Under the pieces are notes generated by a model. That model saw only the letters and a program-made list of their open reading frames with translations. It made no database searches and was not told where the DNA came from. Below are positions 6,146 through 63,321 of a stretch of 64,000 nt of DNA, in pieces. A program made the position numbers and the translations under genes. The first letter of the stretch is position 1. Every line of letters starts with the position of its first letter. This stretch comes from an uncultured Bacteroidales bacterium (GTDB lineage Bacteria; Bacteroidota; Bacteroidia; Bacteroidales; VadinHA17), in NCBI GenBank assembly GCA_963733455.1, contig CAVTDE010000002.1, positions 41,259 through 105,258 on the forward strand, given 5' to 3'.

Positions 6146-6317
6146 AATAATTTACAAAAATAAGTTAGGTACCCCATTATCAATATTACGGTCATTGCGA
6201 GGAGGAACGACGAAGCAATCCTGCAATTACAGGCACAAGGTTAATAAAAAGTGTTGCCTTTACGCCGTTACGCCGTTGCGCCTTTACGCCGTTACGCCGT
6301 TACGCCGTTGCACCGTT

Positions 6318-25199: not shown

Positions 25200-26090
25200 T
25201 CAATTCCCTCCGGTAGCCCGAGAGTGTTTTTTAAGCGTGAAAACCCGTGATATATTAAAACCGAAAAGAATATCCCCTTTCCGCCAGTCACCCGTTGTTT
25301 CGCCTAAAAATCCCTTTTCTATCATCATCAGGGAATTTGTAAAAATAAGCTGGAAAACATGCCCCCCGGTTTCAATATCGAATCCAAGCGATAAAGGATC
25401 ATAGGCATGCTGATTAATATAATTTTTAGAATTTGCCACATAATAGTATTCTGCATTAAAGCTTATTCTTTTGATTAGTTTAATTCTACCGCCTGCACCT
25501 ATAGCGTATAAATCATTGGGGTCGGTTACAGTTGCCACCAGGCTACGGTGAACAATTGATGGTGCTATCTGAAGTGAAAATACCTGATTGATTTTTCGGG
25601 CAATCAGTATCTGCCCTACGTAGGAAAATGGGGAAGAAAAATAGTTTGGAGTGTAGGCGTGATTATGTGCGACAGATGTCATTAATGAAATCGAAACAGG
25701 CATAACTCTTGCTCCAGATGATTGCCGGAACAAAGTAAACTTGGCAAACCCGTTAAAAGTTCTTTCGTATGAGCTCCTCCCGATGCCAACCATCAACCAG
25801 TCAAGTATCCCATACTCAAGTGATAAATGTTGATATCCCACATCAAGCCCAAAAAACAGATTTGCTCCGGAATTTAATGTTCCGAACCTGTGTAAAACTC
25901 TGAAATCAAGCTGTCCGGAAGGCATTCTTTCAATCGAATGCCCGTTCATCACCCTTGTCGATTTAAAAGTTGCCGACACAAAATTTATTTCTGGAATGGT
26001 ATCTTTATTCAGGAGATCCATCAGATCATTCTGTGCAAACAAAACAAAAGGAGATACTGAAAGAAGAAGAAAGATAAACAACTTTTTCAT
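25200..26090 (-). CDS. DUF5777 family outer-membrane beta-barrel protein
   Basis: FKSTR..N.HS, DFR..HRFG, IETGGHVFQL.FTNS, FGFNISRVF; same orientation and cluster as yceI. Confidence 0.78.
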   Translation of the reverse strand: MKKLFIFLLLSVSPFVLFAQNDLMDLLNKDTIPEINFVSATFKSTRVMNGHSIERMPSGQLDFRVLHRFGTLNSGANLFFGLDVGYQHLSLEYGILDWLMVGIGRSSYERTFNGFAKFTLFRQSSGARVMPVSISLMTSVAHNHAYTPNYFSSPFSYVGQILIARKINQVFSLQIAPSIVHRSLVATVTDPNDLYAIGAGGRIKLIKRISFNAEYYYVANSKNYINQHAYDPLSLGFDIETGGHVFQLIFTNSLMMIEKGFLGETTGDWRKGDILFGFNISRVFTLKKHSRATGGN

Positions 26091-26389
26091 AATATTTTTA
26101 ATTATCTTATAATAAAATGATTACATTCTGAAATATCAAAATAAAGGTTCTTTCATTTAGCAATTTCCGCTACAGGGAGTTTATCCCGTTCCAATCCGTA
26201 ATCTTAATATTGTTCTATTTTCAAGTGAACATGCCGATCTAAAGGCATTTCCTTTACCTATAGTTTAAACAGTATATTCTTAAAATGGTTGTAAGAATTG
26301 AGAAAGGTTTATTAAACAGATAGATCTTATCGGTCTTCGTACGCATATAATTAGTTAAGGGCCTGACTATCCGTAAATTTAGATGACTT

Positions 26390-27540: not shown

Positions 27541-28108
27541 CCCCTAAAGGGGGCTTTAAAAACACGTTATTTATCAGGAATTATCTAAATTTGATATTTC
27601 GCTGCTACTAATATTATTTAAGATGAGATCGAGAGTGATTGAGAGGAACATGTTCTATGGCGCCAGTCATAATATTTTTGCCAAAGCATATGAACTAAGG
27701 CAGAACATGACCACTGCGGAAAAATTATTATGGGATGAGCTAAGAAACAGGAGAGTTTTTAAAGTTAAATTTCGGCGACAGCATCCCATAGACATCTTTA
27801 TTGTAGATTTTTATTGCCATGAAATTAAATTAGCAATTGAAGTCGATGGTGAGATTCATTCAGAAACTGAAATCAGAAAATATGATGATGGCAGGACTCA
27901 TGATATTGAAAAGTACGGCATTACAATACTAAGATTTTCAAATAATCAAGTAATTAATGACTTGGGTTCAGTCAAACAAATGATTTTGGAGAAGATTAAA
28001 TCTTTAAGCAGTCGTCAGATTCCTTAGGTCACCCAAGAACATGTTTATAACTACCCAAAATGATAAGTTCTGGATTTCAAGCCCCCTTTAGGGGGTTGGG
28101 GGTGAACC
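27529..28108 (+). mobile_element. DUF559 element copy 2 with terminal inverted repeats
   Basis: Left TTCACCCCCAACCCCCTAAAGGGGGCTT, right AAGCCCCCTTTAGGGGGTTGGGGGTGAA; upstream leader homologous to copy 1. Confidence 0.75.
27623..28027 (+). CDS. DUF559 / Vsr-like endonuclease domain protein (paralogue of 23551-23964)
   Basis: Same MRSRVIERNMFYGAS start and KFRRQHPIDIFIVDFYCHE core; about two-thirds identical to copy 1 by manual count. Confidence 0.92.
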   Translation: MRSRVIERNMFYGASHNIFAKAYELRQNMTTAEKLLWDELRNRRVFKVKFRRQHPIDIFIVDFYCHEIKLAIEVDGEIHSETEIRKYDDGRTHDIEKYGITILRFSNNQVINDLGSVKQMILEKIKSLSSRQIP

Positions 28109-40252: not shown

Positions 40253-40828
40253 ATGGTTAATCTGACCCGAAAAATAATCCTCGCCGTAACCGGCGCAAGC
40301 GGATCAATTTACGCTCAGAAACTTCTTTTAAAACTGGCAAGTCTGGAAACACCGCCATCTGAGATTGCCGTGATCTTTTCAAATACAGCAAGGGAGATAT
40401 GGCAATACGAGACAGGGCAGCAATACGAAGCGGTTCTTCCGGTAAAGGAGTTTCATAATGACGACTTTTTCGCACCATTCGCCTCAGGGTCATCCGGTTA
40501 TGATACTATGATAATTTGTCCTTCATCAATGGGGATGCTCGGACGTATTGCGGGTGGTATCTCAGACGATCTCATAACGCGGGCTGCAGATGTAGTGCTG
40601 AAAGAAAGACGCACATTGATCCTTGTACCGAGAGAGACACCCTATAACCTTATCCATATAAGAAATATGGAAACCCTCACACTTTCGGGCGCGGTCATTT
40701 GTCCGGCAACACCTTCGTTCTACAGCAAACCGGCGACCATCGACGATCTTGTAATGACAGTTGTGGACAGGATAGTTTCACTTGCCGGATTCGATGCACA
40801 ATCATACAGGTGGATGGAACATGGTTGA
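40253..40828 (+). CDS. ubiX: flavin prenyltransferase UbiX
   Basis: AVTGASGSIY, ASGS, PSSMG, RAADVVLKERR.LIL.PRETP, P.FY..P. Confidence 0.93.
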   Translation: MVNLTRKIILAVTGASGSIYAQKLLLKLASLETPPSEIAVIFSNTAREIWQYETGQQYEAVLPVKEFHNDDFFAPFASGSSGYDTMIICPSSMGMLGRIAGGISDDLITRAADVVLKERRTLILVPRETPYNLIHIRNMETLTLSGAVICPATPSFYSKPATIDDLVMTVVDRIVSLAGFDAQSYRWMEHG

Positions 40829-41249
40829 CAGCAGAATAATCAGGTTTTTCAGGAAACATCATGTCCTTACGGTTGCAACGAGTGTAAATAACGAACCCTG
40901 GTGTGCAAGCTGCTTTTATGTTTACATTGAGAACAAGAACGCCCTCGTTATTACATCCGACACAGGAACTCGTCACGCAAGTGAGTTCCTGAAGAATAAA
41001 CTCGTTGCTGGCTCTGTGGTTCTTGAGACACAAATCATTGGAAAGATCCGGGGGATACAGTTCCAGGGAACCGTCTCTGAACCGGAAGGAGAACTGGCAG
41101 AAATCACGGAAAGTGCTTATCTTAAAAGATTCCCGGTTGCAATGCTGATGGAAACCCGGCTCTGGGTTATAAACCTGACTTATATCAAACTGACGGATAA
41201 CAGGTTAGGATTTGGGAAAAAAATCATCTGGTCTGCTGGAACGGCGTAA
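40821..41249 (+). CDS. pyridoxamine-5'-phosphate-oxidase-like / YhbP (UPF0306) family protein
   Basis: HHVLTVAT, PWCASCFY, TRHA, IRGIQFQG, KLTDNRLGFGKK.IW; start at 40821 overlaps the ubiX stop. Confidence 0.8.
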   Translation: MVDSRIIRFFRKHHVLTVATSVNNEPWCASCFYVYIENKNALVITSDTGTRHASEFLKNKLVAGSVVLETQIIGKIRGIQFQGTVSEPEGELAEITESAYLKRFPVAMLMETRLWVINLTYIKLTDNRLGFGKKIIWSAGTA

Positions 41250-41370
41250 TGGCGTTACGGTGTAAGGGCGTTACGGCCATCCTTATTATTGACCTAGTGC
41301 ATGCGACTTTAGGATTGCTTCGTTGTTCCCCCTTCCAATTGACCGTAACATAAATGATGATTACTTTAAA

Positions 41371-41970: not shown

Positions 41971-42149
41971 GAGCTTATTTTTTGATTGATTTTGCGTAAA
42001 GTTATTGAATTTCCGGGAATCCTCTCCCCATCTCCCTTTCTCCCCCTCTCCGTTTCCTTCTTTAAAGCCCTCTCCCTTTCTCCCCCTCTCTGTTACTCCC
42101 CCTCTCCGTTTCTCCCCCTCTCCGTTTCTCCCCCTTTCCGTTTTCTTCT

Positions 42150-42815: not shown

Positions 42816-42877
42816 CTTATATTTTATATTTGGATTTATGCTCCTTTGCGCCTTTGCGCCGTAACGCCGTTACGCCG

Positions 42878-43255
42878 TTACTTTTGTTTCATCTTTGCAT
42901 CCATCGAGAGGGTAGCATGAGGAACCGCCCGTAATCTTTCTTTTGAGATAAGTTTCCCTGTCTCCCGGCATATGCCATAAGTTTTATTTTCGATCCTGAC
43001 AAGTGCAGCCTGCAGGTGCTGAATAAATTTAAGCTGGCGCTGGGCAAGTCTGCCTGCCTCCTCTTTAGATAAAGTTGTAGCTCCTTCTTCCAGAACTTTA
43101 AAAGTCGGAGAAGTATCCATGGTATCATTACTCTCTTCATGGGTGATACTGGATTTCAGAATTTCATAATCACGTTTGGCCTTATCCAACTTCGCAAGGA
43201 TGATCTGTCTGAATTCCTCAAGCTCATCATCCGAATATCTATTTTTCTCAGACAT
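42878..43255 (-). CDS. TraR/DksA family transcriptional regulator (only one Cys left in the finger region)
   Basis: RYSDDELEEF, L.AALVRIENKTYGICRETGKLI.KERL.AVPHATLS. Confidence 0.9.
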   Translation of the reverse strand: MSEKNRYSDDELEEFRQIILAKLDKAKRDYEILKSSITHEESNDTMDTSPTFKVLEEGATTLSKEEAGRLAQRQLKFIQHLQAALVRIENKTYGICRETGKLISKERLRAVPHATLSMDAKMKQK

Positions 43256-43401: not shown

Positions 43402-44364
43402 TCAAGCCCCCTTTAGGGGGTTGGGGGTGATTCCAATGATTTCCCTGAAATACTCAATCGTCCTCTTCAGCCCCTCCTCAAGGTCAACCTTAGGCTGCCA
43501 GTTCAACTCTGACGATGCAAGAGTAATATCAGGCTTCCGCTGCCGGGGATCATCCAGGGGAAGAGGCAGATAGATGAGCTTCGACTTCGATCCCGTCATC
43601 AATATTATCCTTTCCGCAAGCTCCTCTACAGATACCTCATGCGGATTGCCGATATTCACGGGACCGGTAAAGTCATCCCTTGTATCCATAAGTTTTACAA
43701 GTCCGGCAATAAGGTCATCGATATATTGGAAGCTGCGTGTCTGCGATCCGTCCCCGAAAATTGTTATATCACCGCCTTTTAAAGCCTGAACAATAAAGTT
43801 CGAAACAACCCTTCCGTCGTTTGTATTCATGCGCGGACCATAGGTATTGAATATCCTTGCGATCTTTATTCTGACCCCGTTCTGGGTGTGGTAATTCATG
43901 AAAAGGGTTTCTGCGCATCTTTTCCCCTCGTCATAGCATGCACGTGGTCCGAGGGTATTTACATTTCCCCAGTAACTCTCAGGTTGTGGATGTACTATCG
44001 GATCACCGTATATTTCACTTGTTGAAGCCTGTAATATTTTCGACCTGGTCCTTTTCGCCAGACCCAGAGTATTGATAGCGCCCATTACCGATGTCTTGAT
44101 CGTCTTGATGCCATTATACTGATACTGAACCGGTGAAGCCGGACATGCCAGGTTGTAGATCTCATCGGTCTCGACGAATAATGGCATCGTAACATCATGC
44201 CTGACAATCTCAAAATAATGATTATCAAGAAGATGTATGATGTTCATCTTCGATCCTGTAAAATAGTTATCGAGGCAAATGACCTCATTCCCAAGCTTCA
44301 GAAGATATTCACAAAGGTGCGAGCCGATAAATCCGGCGCCACCGGTTACGAGGATCCTTTTCAT
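43402..44364 (-). CDS. UDP-glucuronic acid decarboxylase (UDP-xylose synthase) family SDR
   Basis: [53 protein letters not shown]; start at MKRILV. Confidence 0.92.
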
Positions 44365-44408
44365 AATAGGTAGTTTAAATAAAGCAAATGTACGGAAAAA
44401 GGTATAAA

Positions 44409-45104
44409 GACGCACGACACACGACACACGACACACGACACACGACTCACGACACACGACTCACGACACACGGTATTTAGCTTTTTGGACGAATGGTTAT
44501 TGAAGTAAAAAAGGTTGGTTCATATAATTCTTTATTTTTAAATTTGAAGTGGAATAAAATAAATCACTAAAACTTGCTGCATTATGAGTAATTTTGAAAA
44601 TCTTAAAGTATGGCATAGAGCCATCGAGCTTGCTGTCTCTATTTACAATTTAACTGTAGAAAATAAGTCTTTACAAAAGGATTTTGGTTTAAGGGATCAA
44701 ATGAGAAGAGCATCTGTCAGTATCTCAAGTAATATTTCAGAAGGAGATGAGCTTGCTACAGATAAGCAAGCTATAAGGCAATTCTTTATAGCAAAGGGGT
44801 CATCGGCTGAGTTATACACCCAATTAATAATCTCAAATAAGATTGGTTACATCTCGGATGAGGAAAAGGATTTTTTCCAGAATGAATGCAAAGCCATTTC
44901 CTCAATGCTGGCCAATCTAATTAAGTCCAGGAATTTGGGATCCAAATAATAGAATTCTGTTTCCATATTATCCTGCATTGTGAGTCTATTAACCGTGTGT
45001 CGTGAGTCGGGCATCGTCTGCCTCCTATATGGTGATTACCCGTTTGTCGTGAGTCGGTCATCGTCTGCCTCCTATATGGTGATTACCCGTTTGTCGTGAG
45101 TCGT
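44409..45104 (+). mobile_element. four-helix-bundle gene cassette with an exact 18-bp TIR and amplified ends
   Basis: CGACTCACGACACACGGT (44457-44474) is inverted at 44992-45009; about 9 (A/T)CACGAC heptamers on the left; 47-bp repeats on the right. Confidence 0.7.
44584..44949 (+). CDS. four helix bundle protein (TIGR02436 / 23S rRNA IVP-like)
   Basis: FENLKVW..A, DFGLRDQMRRASVSISSNISEG, IAKGS..E..TQL. Confidence 0.92.
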   Translation: MSNFENLKVWHRAIELAVSIYNLTVENKSLQKDFGLRDQMRRASVSISSNISEGDELATDKQAIRQFFIAKGSSAELYTQLIISNKIGYISDEEKDFFQNECKAISSMLANLIKSRNLGSK

Positions 45105-45114
45105 GCGCCGTCTG

Positions 45115-48100
45115 TCATATTCGGGAACTATTCCTCGTTACCGAAATCCTAACCTTAATCTCATTTATCTCTTCCTCCCGGAGTTTCTCTGAAGGAACTT
45201 CCCTGACAACCTCCACCTTCGTTGCCAGAGTCTGCGACCCGATATACGCCGCATGTCGTTTTACAGCTTCCCTCACCTGGTCATTATCTTCAATGAGAAC
45301 CGTGATCTTATCGGTTACATCAAACCCGCTCTCCTTGCGGATATTCTGGATCCTGTTCACAAACTCACGTGCTATTCCCTCGTAACGTAGTTCATCAGTT
45401 ACAGTGATATCCAGGGCAACTGTGAGCTTACCATCGTTAGCCACCTGCCAACCTGGAATATCTTCGGAGATTATCTCCACATCCTTGGTTGTCAGATTTA
45501 CTTCCTGGCCGTTAATTACAATCCGGTGGGTTCCATTACTCTCAAATTCTGCTATTTCCAGACGTGTAAACCCGGATATTGCAGACGAAATGTCTTTCAT
45601 CAGCTTCCCGTAGCGCGGACCCAGCGATTTGAAATCAGGTTTTATCTTCTTTACAAGAAGAGATGATGTATCGTCAATATATTCAACTGCTTTAACATTA
45701 ACTTCAGCAAGGATCAGATCCCTTACTGCCTCAAACTTATCGCGGAAAGACCTTTCTGTTACCGGCACCATAATTCTTGCAAGCGGCTGACGGACCTTTA
45801 TCCCGACTTTCCTGCGCAATCCTAGTATCATCGAGGAAACCTTCTGCGCAATATCCATCCTCTCCTCAAGATCAGCATTTATCAGCGACTGATCATATTC
45901 CGGGAAAAGCTCAAGATGGACAGAATCCTCTTTGGAGCGATCAGTTATGCTGTTCAGGTCGGTAAACAGACGGTCGGCATAGAATGGTGCGATGGGGGCC
46001 ATAAGCTTGCAGACTGTCTCAAGACAAACATAAAGTGTCTGATAAGCCGCCAGCTTATCCCTGTCATATTCCCCGCCCCAATAACGTTTTCTGTTAAGCC
46101 TTACATACCAGTTACTCAGGTTCTCGGTTACAAATTCCTGAATTGCACGGCCCGCGCGTGTCAGATCATAATCATTATAACAATTCCCGACCTCTTTTAT
46201 CAGAGAATTGAGAAGCGAAATTATCCACCGGTCGATCTCCGGCCGTTCCTTAACCGGGATATCTTCTTCCTTATATCTGAAATTATCGACGTTGGCATAA
46301 AGTGCAAAGAAGGAATATGTGTTATAAAGTGTCCCGAAAAATTTCCTTTTTACTTCATCAACACCTGCTGCATCGAACTTAAGATTATCCCAGGGCTGCG
46401 AATTTGTAAGCATATACCAGCGCAAGGGATCGGAACCATACTCTTCGATGGTTGTAAAAGGATCAACTGCATTACCAAGACGCTTCGACATCTTATTGCC
46501 ATTCTTGTCGAGGACCAGTCCGTTTGAAATAATGTTCTTAAATGCAACGGAATCAGATGTCATCGTGGCTATTGCATGAAGCGTAAAAAACCACCCTCTC
46601 GTTTGGTCGACGCCTTCGGCTATATAATCTGCAGGGAACATTGTATTGAAGTTCTCCTTGTTTTCAAAAGGATAATGCGCCTGGGCATAAGGCATTGATC
46701 CGGAATCGAACCATACATCCAGCAGGTCAGGTTCGCGGAACATCCTTCTGCCGGAAGGACTTACAAGAATTATCTCATCAACGAAGGGTCTGTGCAGATC
46801 GAACTTTTCATAATTGTCTGCCGAATTATCACCCTCGTTAAAATTCTCAAGCGGATTCTTTTTCATAAATCCTGCCTTTACCGATTTTTCAATCTCAGCT
46901 TTCAGCTCGCCTGCCGAGCCAATACATTTCTCTTCCCGCCTGTCATCGGTGAGCCATATTGGAAGCGGCGTACCCCAGAATCTCGAACGTGTGAGGTTCC
47001 AGTCCACAAGATTCTCGAGCCATTTTCCAAACCTCCCTGTTCCCGTCGATTGCGGCTTCCAGTTTATAGTGTTGTTGAGTTCGATCATCCTGTCACGGAA
47101 TGCAGTTGTGCGGATGAACCATGCATCGAGCGGATAGTAAAGGACTGGTTTATCCGTTCGCCAGCAATGCGGATAGCTGTGCACAAGCTTTTCAATTCTG
47201 AATACTTTTCCCTGCTGCTTAAGCATCACGGCAATGTCGACATCAAGAGTATCAGCATCCGGAGAAAGTCTGGAATCATACTCGTTCTTTACGGGACGAC
47301 CTTCAAAACCGGTATAGGAACCGGTGTTGACACGTTCTCTTACAAATTGTATGTCAAGGTCCGAAATGGGCACCATATATCCCCTCTTGTCGACCATCGG
47401 ACCCGTTGTGCCGTCTTTCCTCTTTACCATCATCGGAGGTAAGTCAAACTCCTTTGCCACCCGGTAGTCGTCAGCTCCAAATGTCGGGGCAATGTGAACT
47501 ATCCCGGTACCATCCTCAGTCGTAACAAAATCTCCTGTGACAACCCTGAAGGCGCCCGGATCAGGTTTTACCCAGTCGATAAGCTGCTCATAGATTATTC
47601 CTTCAAGTTGACTTCCCTGGAACTCATCAAGAACCTTGTACGGTATCTTCTTGTCGCCAGGTTTATATTCTGAAATGTCTATAGACGCATTTGGCTCAGG
47701 GAACATTGAGTGAAGAAGCTCCTTTGCAATGACGACAGTTATCGGATTGTTATTATAAGGATTGAAACTCCTGACTTTGATATAAGTTATCTGTTTCCCG
47801 ACAGCCAGGGCTGTATTTGAAGGAAGAGTCCATGGAGTTGTCGTCCAGGCCATTATGTGGACATTGGGAGTGTCGATATTCTTATAAAGGAATTCTGATT
47901 TTGTATTTCTTATTACTTTGAACTGGGCGATGCACGTTGTGTCCTTCACATCGCGGTAGCAACCAGGAAGATTCAGCTCATGAGAGCTTAATCCTGTGCC
48001 TGCTGCGGGTGAATAAGGCTGAATTGTATATCCCTGGTAAAGATATCCGCTGGAGTAGAGTTGTTTCAGCAGCCACCATAGAGTTTCGATATAACGGTTG

Positions 48101-48561
48101 TCGTATGTGACGTATGGGTGATCCATGTTTATCCAGTAACCCATTTTGCGGGTAAGCTCCTCCCACATATCGGTGTACTTCATCACATCGACCTTGCAGG
48201 CCTTATTATAATCTTCGATGGATATCTTAACGCCAATATCCTCTTTTGTGATGCCAAGAGCTTTTTCAACTCCGAGTTCAACTGGCAATCCATGGGTATC
48301 CCATCCCGCCTTGCGCTTCACTTCATATCCGCACTGTGCTTTGAAACGGCAGATAGCATCCTTGATCGTCCTTGCCATGACATGGTGAATGCCGGGCATC
48401 CCATTTGCTGAAGGAGGTCCTTCATAAAACACAAATTCTCCTTTCCCGTCCACTTCCCTTACACTTCTGCGAAAGGTGTCATTCTTATCCCACAGCTTTA
48501 AGATATCCTTATTTATTTGCGAGAGATCAAGACTTTTATATTCAGGAAACCGTTTCCCCAT
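45115..48561 (-). CDS. ileS: isoleucine--tRNA ligase
   Basis: EGPPSANG.PG.HH, GWDTHGLPVE, WTTTPWTLPSN, R.R.WGTPLP.W, KMSKR. Confidence 0.97.
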   Translation of the reverse strand: MGKRFPEYKSLDLSQINKDILKLWDKNDTFRRSVREVDGKGEFVFYEGPPSANGMPGIHHVMARTIKDAICRFKAQCGYEVKRKAGWDTHGLPVELGVEKALGITKEDIGVKISIEDYNKACKVDVMKYTDMWEELTRKMGYWINMDHPYVTYDNRYIETLWWLLKQLYSSGYLYQGYTIQPYSPAAGTGLSSHELNLPGCYRDVKDTTCIAQFKVIRNTKSEFLYKNIDTPNVHIMAWTTTPWTLPSNTALAVGKQITYIKVRSFNPYNNNPITVVIAKELLHSMFPEPNASIDISEYKPGDKKIPYKVLDEFQGSQLEGIIYEQLIDWVKPDPGAFRVVTGDFVTTEDGTGIVHIAPTFGADDYRVAKEFDLPPMMVKRKDGTTGPMVDKRGYMVPISDLDIQFVRERVNTGSYTGFEGRPVKNEYDSRLSPDADTLDVDIAVMLKQQGKVFRIEKLVHSYPHCWRTDKPVLYYPLDAWFIRTTAFRDRMIELNNTINWKPQSTGTGRFGKWLENLVDWNLTRSRFWGTPLPIWLTDDRREEKCIGSAGELKAEIEKSVKAGFMKKNPLENFNEGDNSADNYEKFDLHRPFVDEIILVSPSGRRMFREPDLLDVWFDSGSMPYAQAHYPFENKENFNTMFPADYIAEGVDQTRGWFFTLHAIATMTSDSVAFKNIISNGLVLDKNGNKMSKRLGNAVDPFTTIEEYGSDPLRWYMLTNSQPWDNLKFDAAGVDEVKRKFFGTLYNTYSFFALYANVDNFRYKEEDIPVKERPEIDRWIISLLNSLIKEVGNCYNDYDLTRAGRAIQEFVTENLSNWYVRLNRKRYWGGEYDRDKLAAYQTLYVCLETVCKLMAPIAPFYADRLFTDLNSITDRSKEDSVHLELFPEYDQSLINADLEERMDIAQKVSSMILGLRRKVGIKVRQPLARIMVPVTERSFRDKFEAVRDLILAEVNVKAVEYIDDTSSLLVKKIKPDFKSLGPRYGKLMKDISSAISGFTRLEIAEFESNGTHRIVINGQEVNLTTKDVEIISEDIPGWQVANDGKLTVALDITVTDELRYEGIAREFVNRIQNIRKESGFDVTDKITVLIEDNDQVREAVKRHAAYIGSQTLATKVEVVREVPSEKLREEEINEIKVRISVTRNSSRI

Positions 48562-48612: not shown

Positions 48613-48777
48613 GTAAAAAAGGTTCAAAGGCGCAATGGCGTAACGGCACAACGGTGTAATGGCAGAACATAATGAGAAAAGGGGAGTGGGGGGTTGGGGG
48701 AAATTTGGAGAATGGGAGAAAGGGGAGAGGGAGAATGGGAGAAATTTCTTTAATTTGTATTTAAAAGAAAAGAAACA

Positions 48778-49203: not shown

Positions 49204-49369
49204 TTGGGAGTGGATGAAAGGGAGAACGGCCATCTTTTTTATTAACATCGTGCCTGCGACATTAAGATTGCTTCGTCGTTCCTCCTCGCAATGACCGGAC
49301 CCTTGATGATGGGGTAATTGCACAATTGCACAATTGCATAATTGCATAATTGCATAATCGCACAATTAC

Positions 49370-53357: not shown

Positions 53358-53741
53358 TGAAACAGGTATTGGTTTGTTGAAAACAAATATAGGAGTTTTT
53401 AATAAATCCTTTCCCAAATAAGCCTGATGCCAATCTAAAAAGATCCTCCTCCCGGAACGGCTCAACGGCATAACGGCTAACGGCTCCACGGCCAAACGGC
53501 TCTTAAGAATCAGCCTTACAACGCGAATATTTTTCTCCCCCCTGGGGGAGATGCCGAGCTTGCGAGGCAGAGGGGGTTCTAATCCAGGCAGAAACCCCCT
53601 TCCCGGCCTTCCCCCAGGGGGGGAAGGAGCGAAATCCAGTACACGGAACCCGGGTTTCCAGCTGCTTTTGAACAAGATCCTTTTAATTGCATAATTACCC
53701 TATAAATCCTAAATTTACATTGCACCCAAAATGACATTAAT

Positions 53742-56926: not shown

Positions 56927-57181
56927 ATAAAATATCACAAAATAGGGCTTACTTTAAAGGAAAGAATATTGTATTGTTAAGTTAAATCGTAAAAAGGTAA
57001 AAGAAATCCTTTTAACCATTTCCCCCTTGGGGGAAACAGGAAAGGGGGACAATAATTCATTGGGGGAAGGAGCGAAATCCAGTGCCTGGAACTGGCACCC
57101 AGCAACCACAGCACCCGGCAACCAGCACCCAGGCACCCAGCAACCAGCAACCAGCACCTGCCTTTAAGTCGACAAAATGTT

Positions 57182-63085: not shown

Positions 63086-63246
63086 GCAACCAGTAACCAG
63101 TAACCAGTAACCAGTAACCAGCAACCCGCAACCAGTAACCAGTAACCAGCAACCCGTAACCAGTAACCAGTAACCAGTAACCAGTAACCAGTAACCAGCA
63201 ACCCGCAACCAGTAACCAGTAACCAGCAACCCGCAACCCGCACCCC
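63086..63246. repeat. heptamer tandem repeat (G[T/C]AACC[A/C]), about 23 units
   Basis: GTAACCA units interspersed with GCAACCC and GCAACCA variants. Confidence 0.95.
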
Positions 63247-63321
63247 GTGAAAGATAATTTCTGTTCCAATGTATCAAAATCCCATTTTTCCCGTTAAACA
63301 TCTGAAACCTAACCACTAATT

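Follow-up and report, generated by a model that had tools for sequence, protein, structure and literature searches.

The closest known object to the element described here is the S23p-encoding intervening sequence (IVS) of 23S rRNA. Our subject is a small four-helix-bundle protein gene (PF05635, 23S_rRNA_IVP; TIGR02436) that stands between complementary arrays of 7-nt repeats in a 64,000-nucleotide stretch of DNA from an uncultured Bacteroidales bacterium. This stretch, hereafter the window, covers positions 41259-105258 of contig C2 in an assembly of 5.16 Mb and 10 contigs (genome G000). IVSs encoding S23p are found in Leptospira, Coxiella, Xanthomonas, and Brucella; they depend on host transcription, and their sporadic distribution suggests horizontal transfer (PMC4990558). 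The Coxiella IVS is 428 nt long and carries an S23p open reading frame (ORF) of the PF05635 family; RNase III cuts its 28-bp terminal stem, and three to four tandem GACAGAT heptamers, varying in number among strains, lie at the 5′ RNase III cut (PMC4990558). PF05635 is also the Pfam family most often found beside the reverse transcriptases (RTs) of diversity-generating retroelements (DGRs), as the homologue of Avd (PMC10053308). S23p relatives have been described in the literature as a homopentameric toroid. Heptamer arms around PF05635 genes outside rRNA were not found described in the literature, among open-access papers only, where absence is not proof.

Other known systems combine inverted or tandem repeats in ways that bear on this locus. 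Eukaryotic foldback (FB-type) transposons have long inverted arms made of tandem sub-repeats, unequal and variable in length, with an optional internal coding sequence, and their arms promote inversion as well as rearrangement. Correia/NEMIS, REP/BIME, and ERIC elements, together with the fold-back inhibition of IS10, are cases of inverted repeats that pair in read-through RNA, leading to RNase III cleavage or occlusion of the ribosome-binding site. Short tandemly repeated repetitive (STRR) sequences are intergenic tandem heptamers of heterocystous cyanobacteria, in genomes with many PF05635 genes; we know of no link between them and flanking inverted pairs or PF05635. Against this background, we read the window element, at a probability of roughly 0.55, as an IVS-type fold-back cassette, i.e., a PF05635 (S23p/Avd-like) gene between complementary 7-nt-repeat arms that would pair in RNA and drive inversion and turnover in DNA.

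The Cassette Between uxs and ileS

The cassette gene (44584-44949, plus strand) is intact and encodes a protein of 121 amino acids that matches the profiles of PF05635 (E 3e-30, 105 bits against a cut-off of 33.8) and TIGR02436 (E 5e-30, 103.9 bits against a cut-off of 24). Its nearest solved relatives are 2GSC (6.6e-13) and 2RLD, both with five chains per entry. An earlier note, made from the letters of the window alone, had assigned the gene to this family and pointed to its kinship with Avd; the profile matches and the place of PF05635 beside DGR RTs bear out both. The gene is the only ORF of the element and is antisense to both of its neighbors, which in the ORF list are a uxs-like gene (UDP-glucuronate decarboxylase-type, 43402-44370, minus strand) and ileS (45115-48561, minus strand). 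No identifiable transposase lies within the element, Rfam gave no match in 44200-45300, and PADLOC gave none for the cassette. Among metagenomes, the window sequence was seen only in those of DNA from soil or sediment, and its share there was at most 0.16.

The left (5′) arm (44409-44474), evident from Tandem Repeats Finder (TRF), from direct reading, and from the predicted fold, is a GACACAC/GACTCAC heptamer array of 9.1 copies; the TRF call itself, GACACAC x9.1, spans 44409-44472, in agreement with the roughly nine copies counted in the earlier note. By direct reading, the inner 18 nt of this array, CGACTCACGACACACGGT (44457-44474), recur as their exact reverse complement at 44992-45009, the inner right (3′) arm, which confirms that the antisense gene is bounded by an exact 18-bp terminal inverted repeat (TIR). 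Beyond it, TRF finds a 47-bp unit in 2.7 tandem copies (44988-45114), each holding the arm tip GTCGTGAGTCG. The tips stand exactly at 44999, 45046, and 45093, in the 47-bp units that had been reported, and two reverse-strand copies lie within the left array. Shuffles of the window gave 0 matches for the 18-bp inverted repeat, and the chance expectation for the tip repeats is 0.01. The outermost 47-bp copy directly abuts the ileS stop codon (45115-45117); on the uxs side, nothing remains of the original spacer but 44371-44408, the uxs promoter region.

The arms lie 110 nt (5′) and 43 nt (3′) from the ORF. The consensus of the Bacteroidota −7 promoter element is TAnnTTTG, and a box of this form, TAAATTTG (44539-44546, plus strand), lies inside the arms, 37 nt 5′ of the ATG, with an equivalent box in the upstream regions of orthologues; we infer from it a candidate promoter of the cassette gene's own. 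A sigma-70-like match is present at 44500-44528.

In the single-strand minimum free energy (MFE) fold, the left array pairs serially with all three right-hand tips, while the 36-nt pieces between tips form small local hairpins. The MFE of the plus strand is -208.5 kcal/mol (z -10.3); the minus strand has a z of -5.0. Since the left array is predicted to pair with every tip, the "end amplification" on the right would give the expanded left array its pairing partners. The ORF is enclosed, as in an IVS, by complementary termini with a stable predicted stem, in which array pairing extends the 18-bp exact inverted repeat.

The likeness to the S23p-encoding IVS thus includes the PF05635 cargo, complementary termini that form a stem around the ORF, and, as in Coxiella, heptamers at the 5′ side. 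However, the window cassette lies outside an rRNA helix, between the protein-coding genes uxs and ileS and antisense to both; its arms consist of nine heptamers and three 47-bp units, where the Coxiella IVS has a 28-bp stem; a candidate promoter for the gene lies within it; and RNase III cleavage is for it a prediction only. With the Avd of DGRs it shares the family and a homologous four-helix-bundle fold, of which the solved relatives are pentameric, but it has neither an adjacent RT nor a pair of template and variable repeats (TR/VR), and to our knowledge DGR avd genes have not been reported with heptamer arms. The foldback architecture of FB-type transposons is present, with 9 x 7 bp on the left and 2.7 x 47 bp with tips on the right, and unequal inverted arms of tandem repeats are also found at other PF05635 loci. 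Unlike the eukaryotic elements, which are multi-copy and have arm sequences common within a family, PF05635 loci have locus-specific units positioned by start and stop codons. Correia/NEMIS, REP/BIME, and ERIC differ in being families of conserved sequence, which mostly either have no cargo or carry a transposase, and in being without 7-nt periodicity.

A nearer comparison had been drawn in the earlier note with the second copy of a DUF559 gene in the same genome. It holds insofar as both are small genes bracketed by inverted ends, some of the DUF559 elements having tandemly amplified flanks as well; it fails in that DUF559 ends are hairpin-containing TIRs common to copies (e.g., CCTTTTGAAGGAGGGGTGGCC, GGTTCACCCCCAACCCCCTAAAGGGGG) and not locus-specific heptamer arrays. 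There are ten DUF559 genes in the genome (e.g., window 27680-27997 = C2:68938-69255), with two or three TIR types, the signature of a multi-copy element.

Inverted Heptamer Arms as a Family Trait

The genome that holds the window has 10 PF05635 matches, comprising seven intact genes and three fragments. At eight of the 10, arrays lie on both sides and are inverted between sides, with a unit that differs per locus. All seven intact paralogues have such locus-specific inverted 7/8-mer arms. Units at the flanked loci include AGACGGA/GTCTTCC, AGTTGGC/GCCAACT, GGCGCAG/CTGCGCC, GTCGTGCG/CGCAAGAC, AGGGCTC/GAGCCCT, and GTTGCTG/CAGCAAC; the GACACAC-type unit forms only one array in the whole genome. 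The proteins of the seven intact copies are only 23-28% identical to each other in pairwise comparison, values that mark them as old paralogues rather than recent copies. This genome is rich in tandem arrays of period 6-9 (about 530 in 5.16 Mb, 532 of them screened), so that an array alone means little here. However, only 16 of the 532 are strongly matched by a reverse-complement array within 1.6 kb, and among the eight inverted pairs with a loop of 380-730 nt, six enclose a PF05635 gene. An unbiased screen, in which complementarity between upstream and downstream flanks was scored for 923 ORFs of 85-180 codons, placed six of the seven intact PF05635 copies within the top 23; the seventh (C5:27945) fell outside that list, and its inverted arrays were found in other scans. 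Other high scorers in this screen were DUF559, IS200/RAYT-like, and GxxExxY (PD-(D/E)XK) genes and a few GIY-YIG genes, although most GIY-YIG genes of the genome have no inverted ends.

The same arms surround PF05635 genes throughout the Bacteroidota. The family is present in 96 of 121 sampled Bacteroidota genomes, in up to 19 copies. For 108 loci, each oriented by gene strand, an inverted-repeat (IR) score was obtained by local alignment of the 250 nt upstream against the reverse complement of the 250 nt downstream, and 431 shifted windows served as controls. An IR score of at least 13 was reached by 51% of the loci and 0.7% of the controls (Mann-Whitney p 5e-43), and one of at least 15 by 38% and 0%, respectively. 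Together with the eight of 10 matches in the home genome, this is the enrichment of inverted k-mer arms at TIGR02436 loci that the earlier note had looked for. With lenient TRF settings, 96 of the 108 loci have an array upstream and 94 have one downstream, with a period of 7 or 14 in most; the median array holds 4.7 heptamers upstream and 4.6 downstream, values to be read with the truncation of short arrays by the TRF threshold in mind.

Seventy loci with clear arms provided the arm statistics. The median arm is 29 nt long; median distances to the gene are 27 nt from the end of the 5′ arm to the ATG and 10 nt from the stop codon to the start of the 3′ arm, and the best self-match period is 7 in most arms. 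The 5′ arm contains more G than C at 67 of 70 loci (G 597, C 186). We rejected the idea that this G-richness shows a polarity with respect to the gene, since the sequence of an inverted repeat is the same whichever strand is read; what it reflects is the chirality of the hairpin rather than a choice of strand. In 55 of the 70 5′ arms the dinucleotide AG recurs in phase every 7 nt (per-position logo A.78, G.88, T.43, N, N, T.58, N), a phase, AGN5, that the GACAGAT heptamer of the Coxiella IVS also fits. All three frames are closed by stop codons (TAG/TGA/TAA) within 33 of 70 5′ arms, compared to 11.2 +/- 2.9 in shuffles. No TAnnTTTG box lies within 250 nt at 66 of 70 loci and a co-directional ORF lies upstream at 84 of 108, on which grounds most PF05635 copies look co-transcribed with the gene upstream.

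Outside the Bacteroidota, 42 loci were sampled (29 from Pseudomonadota, 11 from a Desulfobacterales metagenome-assembled genome (MAG), and two from a Saccharibacteria MAG). An IR score of at least 13 was found at 25 of the 42 and at two of 162 controls, again with period 7. In four related Pseudomonadota genomes, a (GTAGGCA)5-6 array ends 4 nt before the ATG, a (TGCCTAC)11-13 array starts 3 nt after the stop codon, and the reading frame of an upstream acyl-CoA dehydrogenase ends in a TAG of the array. In Thiohalocapsa marina DSM 19078 (locus L166), the arms are CGAGTCACGAGTTGCGAGTTGAA ... TTTAACTCGCAACTCGAAACTCG. Gene plus arms is a general and maintained architecture of PF05635, found in Bacteroidota, Pseudomonadota, the Desulfobacterales MAG, and Saccharibacteria, and so in no fewer than four phyla. 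As a separate observation, three loci in Desulfobacterota MAGs (L153, L154, and L155, from Desulfobacterales, Desulfobacteraceae, and Desulfobulbaceae) encode proteins 61-66% identical to the window protein, in cassettes with AG-phased heptamer arms of their own; these copies reflect either cross-phylum transfer or binning contamination.

Maintenance of the Stem

Comparison of locus pairs with proteins at least 55% identical showed that the arms remain complementary while their sequence turns over. Identity of the 5′ arm between orthologues falls from 0.92 (amino acid identity of at least 90%) through 0.71 and 0.53 to 0.47 (amino acid identity of 55-65%), against 0.30 between unrelated loci, whereas complementarity of the two arms within a locus holds at 0.82-0.87 across all divergence bins. 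Since complementarity stays steady as the arm sequence drifts, independent decay of the arms is excluded, and either selection or concerted correction between arms must be at work. Among transition-type mismatches, those compatible with G·U pairing are more frequent on the sense strand of the gene (101 vs. 62; p ~0.002, by our own binomial estimate), an excess that leans toward pairing in sense RNA.

Turnover Among Congeners

The relatives available for comparison were uncultured Rikenellaceae/Bacteroidales MAGs, and in these the uxs-ileS junction varies widely. An empty counterpart of the site, as envisaged in the earlier note, exists in G004, where the spacer is only 86 bp long and contains no repeat; other congeners hold unrelated inserts. 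The spacer measures 147 bp in G007, with a CTCTGTG/CACAGAG hairpin; 181 bp in G016, with a palindromic miniature inverted-repeat transposable element (MITE); 268 bp in G010; 464 bp in G001, with a small GIY-YIG gene; 473 bp in G012, with heptamer arrays; 708 bp in G006, with nested palindromes; and 1616 bp in G018, with an IS200/RAYT-like gene. In these spacers (loci L021-L028), the small insert thus changes with nearly every species of the genus; the IS200/RAYT-like gene lies between CTACCCTTTATACACATCT inverted ends. This variety marks the spacer as a hotspot for small elements.

The orthologous cassette, with a protein 70-81% identical and GACACAC-type arms, occurs at at least five different junctions and in both orientations. 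In the window genome it lies between uxs and ileS, in G005 between dksA and ileS, at locus L145 between upxY and dksA (as does a 62% relative in G007), in G016 between PNPOx and ribE, in L149-L151 at this same junction in the opposite orientation, and in G014 beside ribE. The unit has thus changed place and orientation within the genus, and a relative has the uxs-ileS spacer without it; locally, it is neither fixed nor syntenic. The surrounding genes (ileS, uxs, dksA, upxY, ribE, PNPOx-like, and rhodanese) are also reordered and inverted between genomes, and all relocations of the cassette are confined to this one rearranged neighborhood, where recombination between arrays would fit them as well as transposition does. 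A comparison of G000 with the empty spacer of G004 revealed no target-site duplication at the boundaries. Across genera of other lineages, the cassette keeps a syntenic position. Two close relatives (L148 and L152) have the AG-phased units AGACGCA and AGACACC, so that the window unit looks like a drifted form.

Arrays are also found elsewhere in this neighborhood. Inverted octamer arrays, AACGGCGT at window 41240-41277 and CGCCGTTA at 42849-42881, flank a 1.57-kb ribE-upxY segment whose genes vary in order and orientation among congeners. The PNPOx-like protein (ORF 40782-41249) has its final residues encoded by the array; in G016 and L149 the corresponding tail comes from the cassette arm.

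Other Repeats and Small Elements of the Genome

Arrays of at least three copies number 233 for heptamers and 140 for octamers; nearly all are intergenic, most are solo, and the commonest units are AACCAGC and AACGGCGT. The window alone has about 30 arrays, e.g., at 6256-6317, 41240-41277, 42068-42143, 42849-42881, 48625-48747, 49316-49367, 53456-53502, 57095-57158, and 63088-63247.

A 148-bp MITE-like family is present in 11 copies that are 83-93% identical, with inverted (GTTGCTG)n/(CAGCAAC)n arrays as ends around a conserved 85-bp core, i.e., a multi-copy family of foldback type. The reference copy is at C5:1315947-1316095, and the others are at C5:1447664, C5:1164453, C5:981422, C5:1027807, C10:290397, C10:263113, C10:468980, C10:229210, C10:519883, and C9:55823. 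At C5:25641-26430, a (GTTGCTG)n-armed four-helix-bundle gene is split into two fragments (25744-25884 and 26189-26365) by a small GIY-YIG gene (25914-26126), one selfish-looking gene within another. Two genes of GxxExxY / PD-(D/E)XK type (C10:542421-542798 and C9:43445-43822) are tightly bracketed by inverted 8-9-nt repeats (CGCAGAGT..., CGCAAAGAG...), which in one of the two cases lie 0-3 nt from the ATG and the stop codon; the repeat-arm architecture may therefore be common to a second gene family, GxxExxY (PF13366). The non-orthologous four-helix-bundle cassettes at C3:560215-560583 in G000 and at L030 in G002 adjoin similar tRNA genes, and at the former site a ~60-bp piece with the tRNA end is duplicated.

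A Proposed Fold-Back Cassette and Its Alternatives

Under the IVS-type fold-back reading, any RNA transcribed through both arms would form a long interrupted duplex with the ORF looped out, and this duplex would be a substrate of RNase III, as in the S23p-bearing 23S rRNA IVSs; an RNase III gene (an rnc homologue) is present at C3:553257-553631. Typical members have a 5′ arm that stops only a few nucleotides short of the ATG; there the duplex would in addition block the start region, and reading frames coming from upstream would be terminated. In DNA, the inverted arrays would serve as substrates for recombination and slippage, giving rise to inversion, copy-number change, loss, and relocation with no dedicated transposase. 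The arms of the window copy lie far out, with a candidate promoter inside and the gene antisense, and its duplex would therefore form mainly in read-through RNA from ileS to uxs, where it would serve for processing or insulation; the gene itself would be expressed independently.

Several points weigh against this reading. We infer the RNA pairing and the RNase III cleavage, as well as how the cassette moves and whatever part the protein plays. Among arm mismatches, 216 of 379 are neither G·U nor A·C, transcription-linked mutation bias could mimic the excess of G·U on the sense strand, and concerted correction between arms at the DNA level would preserve complementarity equally well. The ~530 short-period arrays may mean that array growth is a mutational habit of this lineage. 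The window copy is itself atypical, a minority variant of the family norm: its 5′ arm is C-rich, whereas 67 of 70 are G-rich, the arm has neither in-phase AG nor stop codons, and the arms are far from an ORF that is antisense to both neighbors. With these departures, the window locus falls outside the translational part of the model.

Coincidence, in which 7-9-mer microsatellite-like litter happened to leave an inverted pair around this gene, draws on the ~530 mostly solo arrays of period 6-9, ~30 of them in the window. It is hardly credible and is refuted as a sufficient explanation, given that the 16 arrays of 532 with an inverted partner are concentrated on PF05635 genes, that the exact 18-mer with its tip repeats has an expectation near 0, that the architecture recurs in genomes and phyla without array litter, and that complementarity is kept through divergence. 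Insertion of the cassette into pre-existing heptamer arrays was likewise rejected, since this would leave direct and not inverted arrays, and since genomes without array litter show the same arms. Movement as a non-autonomous DNA transposon of foldback type is a more serious contender, with the inverted arrays as ends recognized by structure, a recombinase or nuclease supplied from elsewhere (e.g., a Y1 enzyme of IS200/RAYT type that works on hairpins), and the gene as cargo. The empty and differently filled uxs-ileS spacers, the orthologous cassette at at least five junctions in both orientations, the 11-copy MITE-like family with (GTTGCTG)n/(CAGCAAC)n arms in the same genome, five Y1-transposase-like genes there and a RAYT-like gene in the G018 spacer, and the 61-66% identical copies in Desulfobacterota MAGs would all fit. 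We nevertheless consider it unlikely, because the arms differ at every locus and offer no common recognition sequence, the G000/G004 boundaries have no target-site duplication, the paralogues are ancient, cassettes are syntenic across genera in other lineages, and a conserved arm position relative to ATG and stop, with in-phase AG, would be needless for ends indifferent to their cargo. Moreover, with all relocations in one rearranged neighborhood, recombination between arrays fits as well as hopping. In terms of classical TIR transposons and MITEs, the TIRs are present and multiple copies with the same ends are absent; in terms of foldback-type transposition, there are site polymorphism, relocation, and inversion among congeners, in one rearranged neighborhood, and no junction signature was found. 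The earlier note had seen here a cargo-plus-repeat-end element moved in trans, possibly through an RNA step. What stands is that the unit of gene and arms is not fixed in place; transposition in trans is disfavored by the locus-unique arms, the missing target-site duplication, the lack of a transposase in the element, the ancient paralogues, and the synteny in other lineages.

The RNA step fares worse. Retro-mobility, with a stem-closed cassette RNA that is reverse-transcribed and re-integrated by an RT and an Avd-like protein, has as its only footing the family kinship of PF05635 with Avd, the accessory protein of DGRs, and a single RVT_1 gene in the genome (C8:77331-77981). This RT is on another contig than the cassette, which is on C2, and beside no four-helix-bundle gene, no TR/VR-like repeats were seen, the promoter-containing unit keeps both arms on relocation, and no poly-A or other retro-insertion hallmark was seen, all of which makes this route very improbable. 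The remaining alternative assigns the arms to the protein. The heptamers would be cognate sites of a pentameric four-helix-bundle protein, one repeat per subunit, through which the protein would control arm pairing and its own processing or translation, in the manner of HutP and TRAP, ring proteins that read spaced triplets. The AG recurring every 7 nt in 55 of 70 5′ arms that are otherwise unrelated in sequence, the return of this phase in other phyla, and the medians of 4.7 and 4.6 heptamers per array would suit such a reader, as would the five chains of 2GSC and 2RLD, the homopentameric toroid of the literature, and the fact that Avd, the sole studied relative of the family, belongs to an RNA-dependent DGR machinery. 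However, binding is putative throughout, the mode of four to five repeats is soft because the TRF threshold truncates short arrays, the window locus and its close orthologues are without AG, arrays in the genus reach 9-30 copies, and AG could instead reflect stop codons or Shine-Dalgarno-like purines. We therefore regard recognition of the arms by the protein as quite doubtful, and prefer for the window element the fold-back cassette whose arms pair in RNA and recombine in DNA.

Implications for the PF05635 Family

PF05635/TIGR02436 is among the commonest unexplained small-gene families in bacteria, and the functional handles on it have so far been only the rRNA IVSs and the Avd of DGRs. In its boldest form, which we offer as a long shot, PF05635 and its heptamer arms would make up a self-recognizing module across bacteria: a pentameric ring would recognize some five (AGN5) repeats in its own fold-back transcript or in the DNA hairpin and thereby choose between processing, translation, and recombination, rRNA IVSs and the partnership of Avd with RNA in DGRs would be specialized offshoots, and this would be the first bacterial foldback cassette to spread and invert through its arms without a transposase. 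The arms are flagged as local hotspots of rearrangement, which matters for assembling MAGs of these lineages and for annotating them by synteny. Should position-fixed complementary arms of 7-nt periodicity accompany nearly every stand-alone copy, the rRNA IVS would be a special case of a general cassette, and PF05635 would, if this is true, gain a concrete, testable ligand and mechanism in the stem, RNase III, and the AG-phased repeats.

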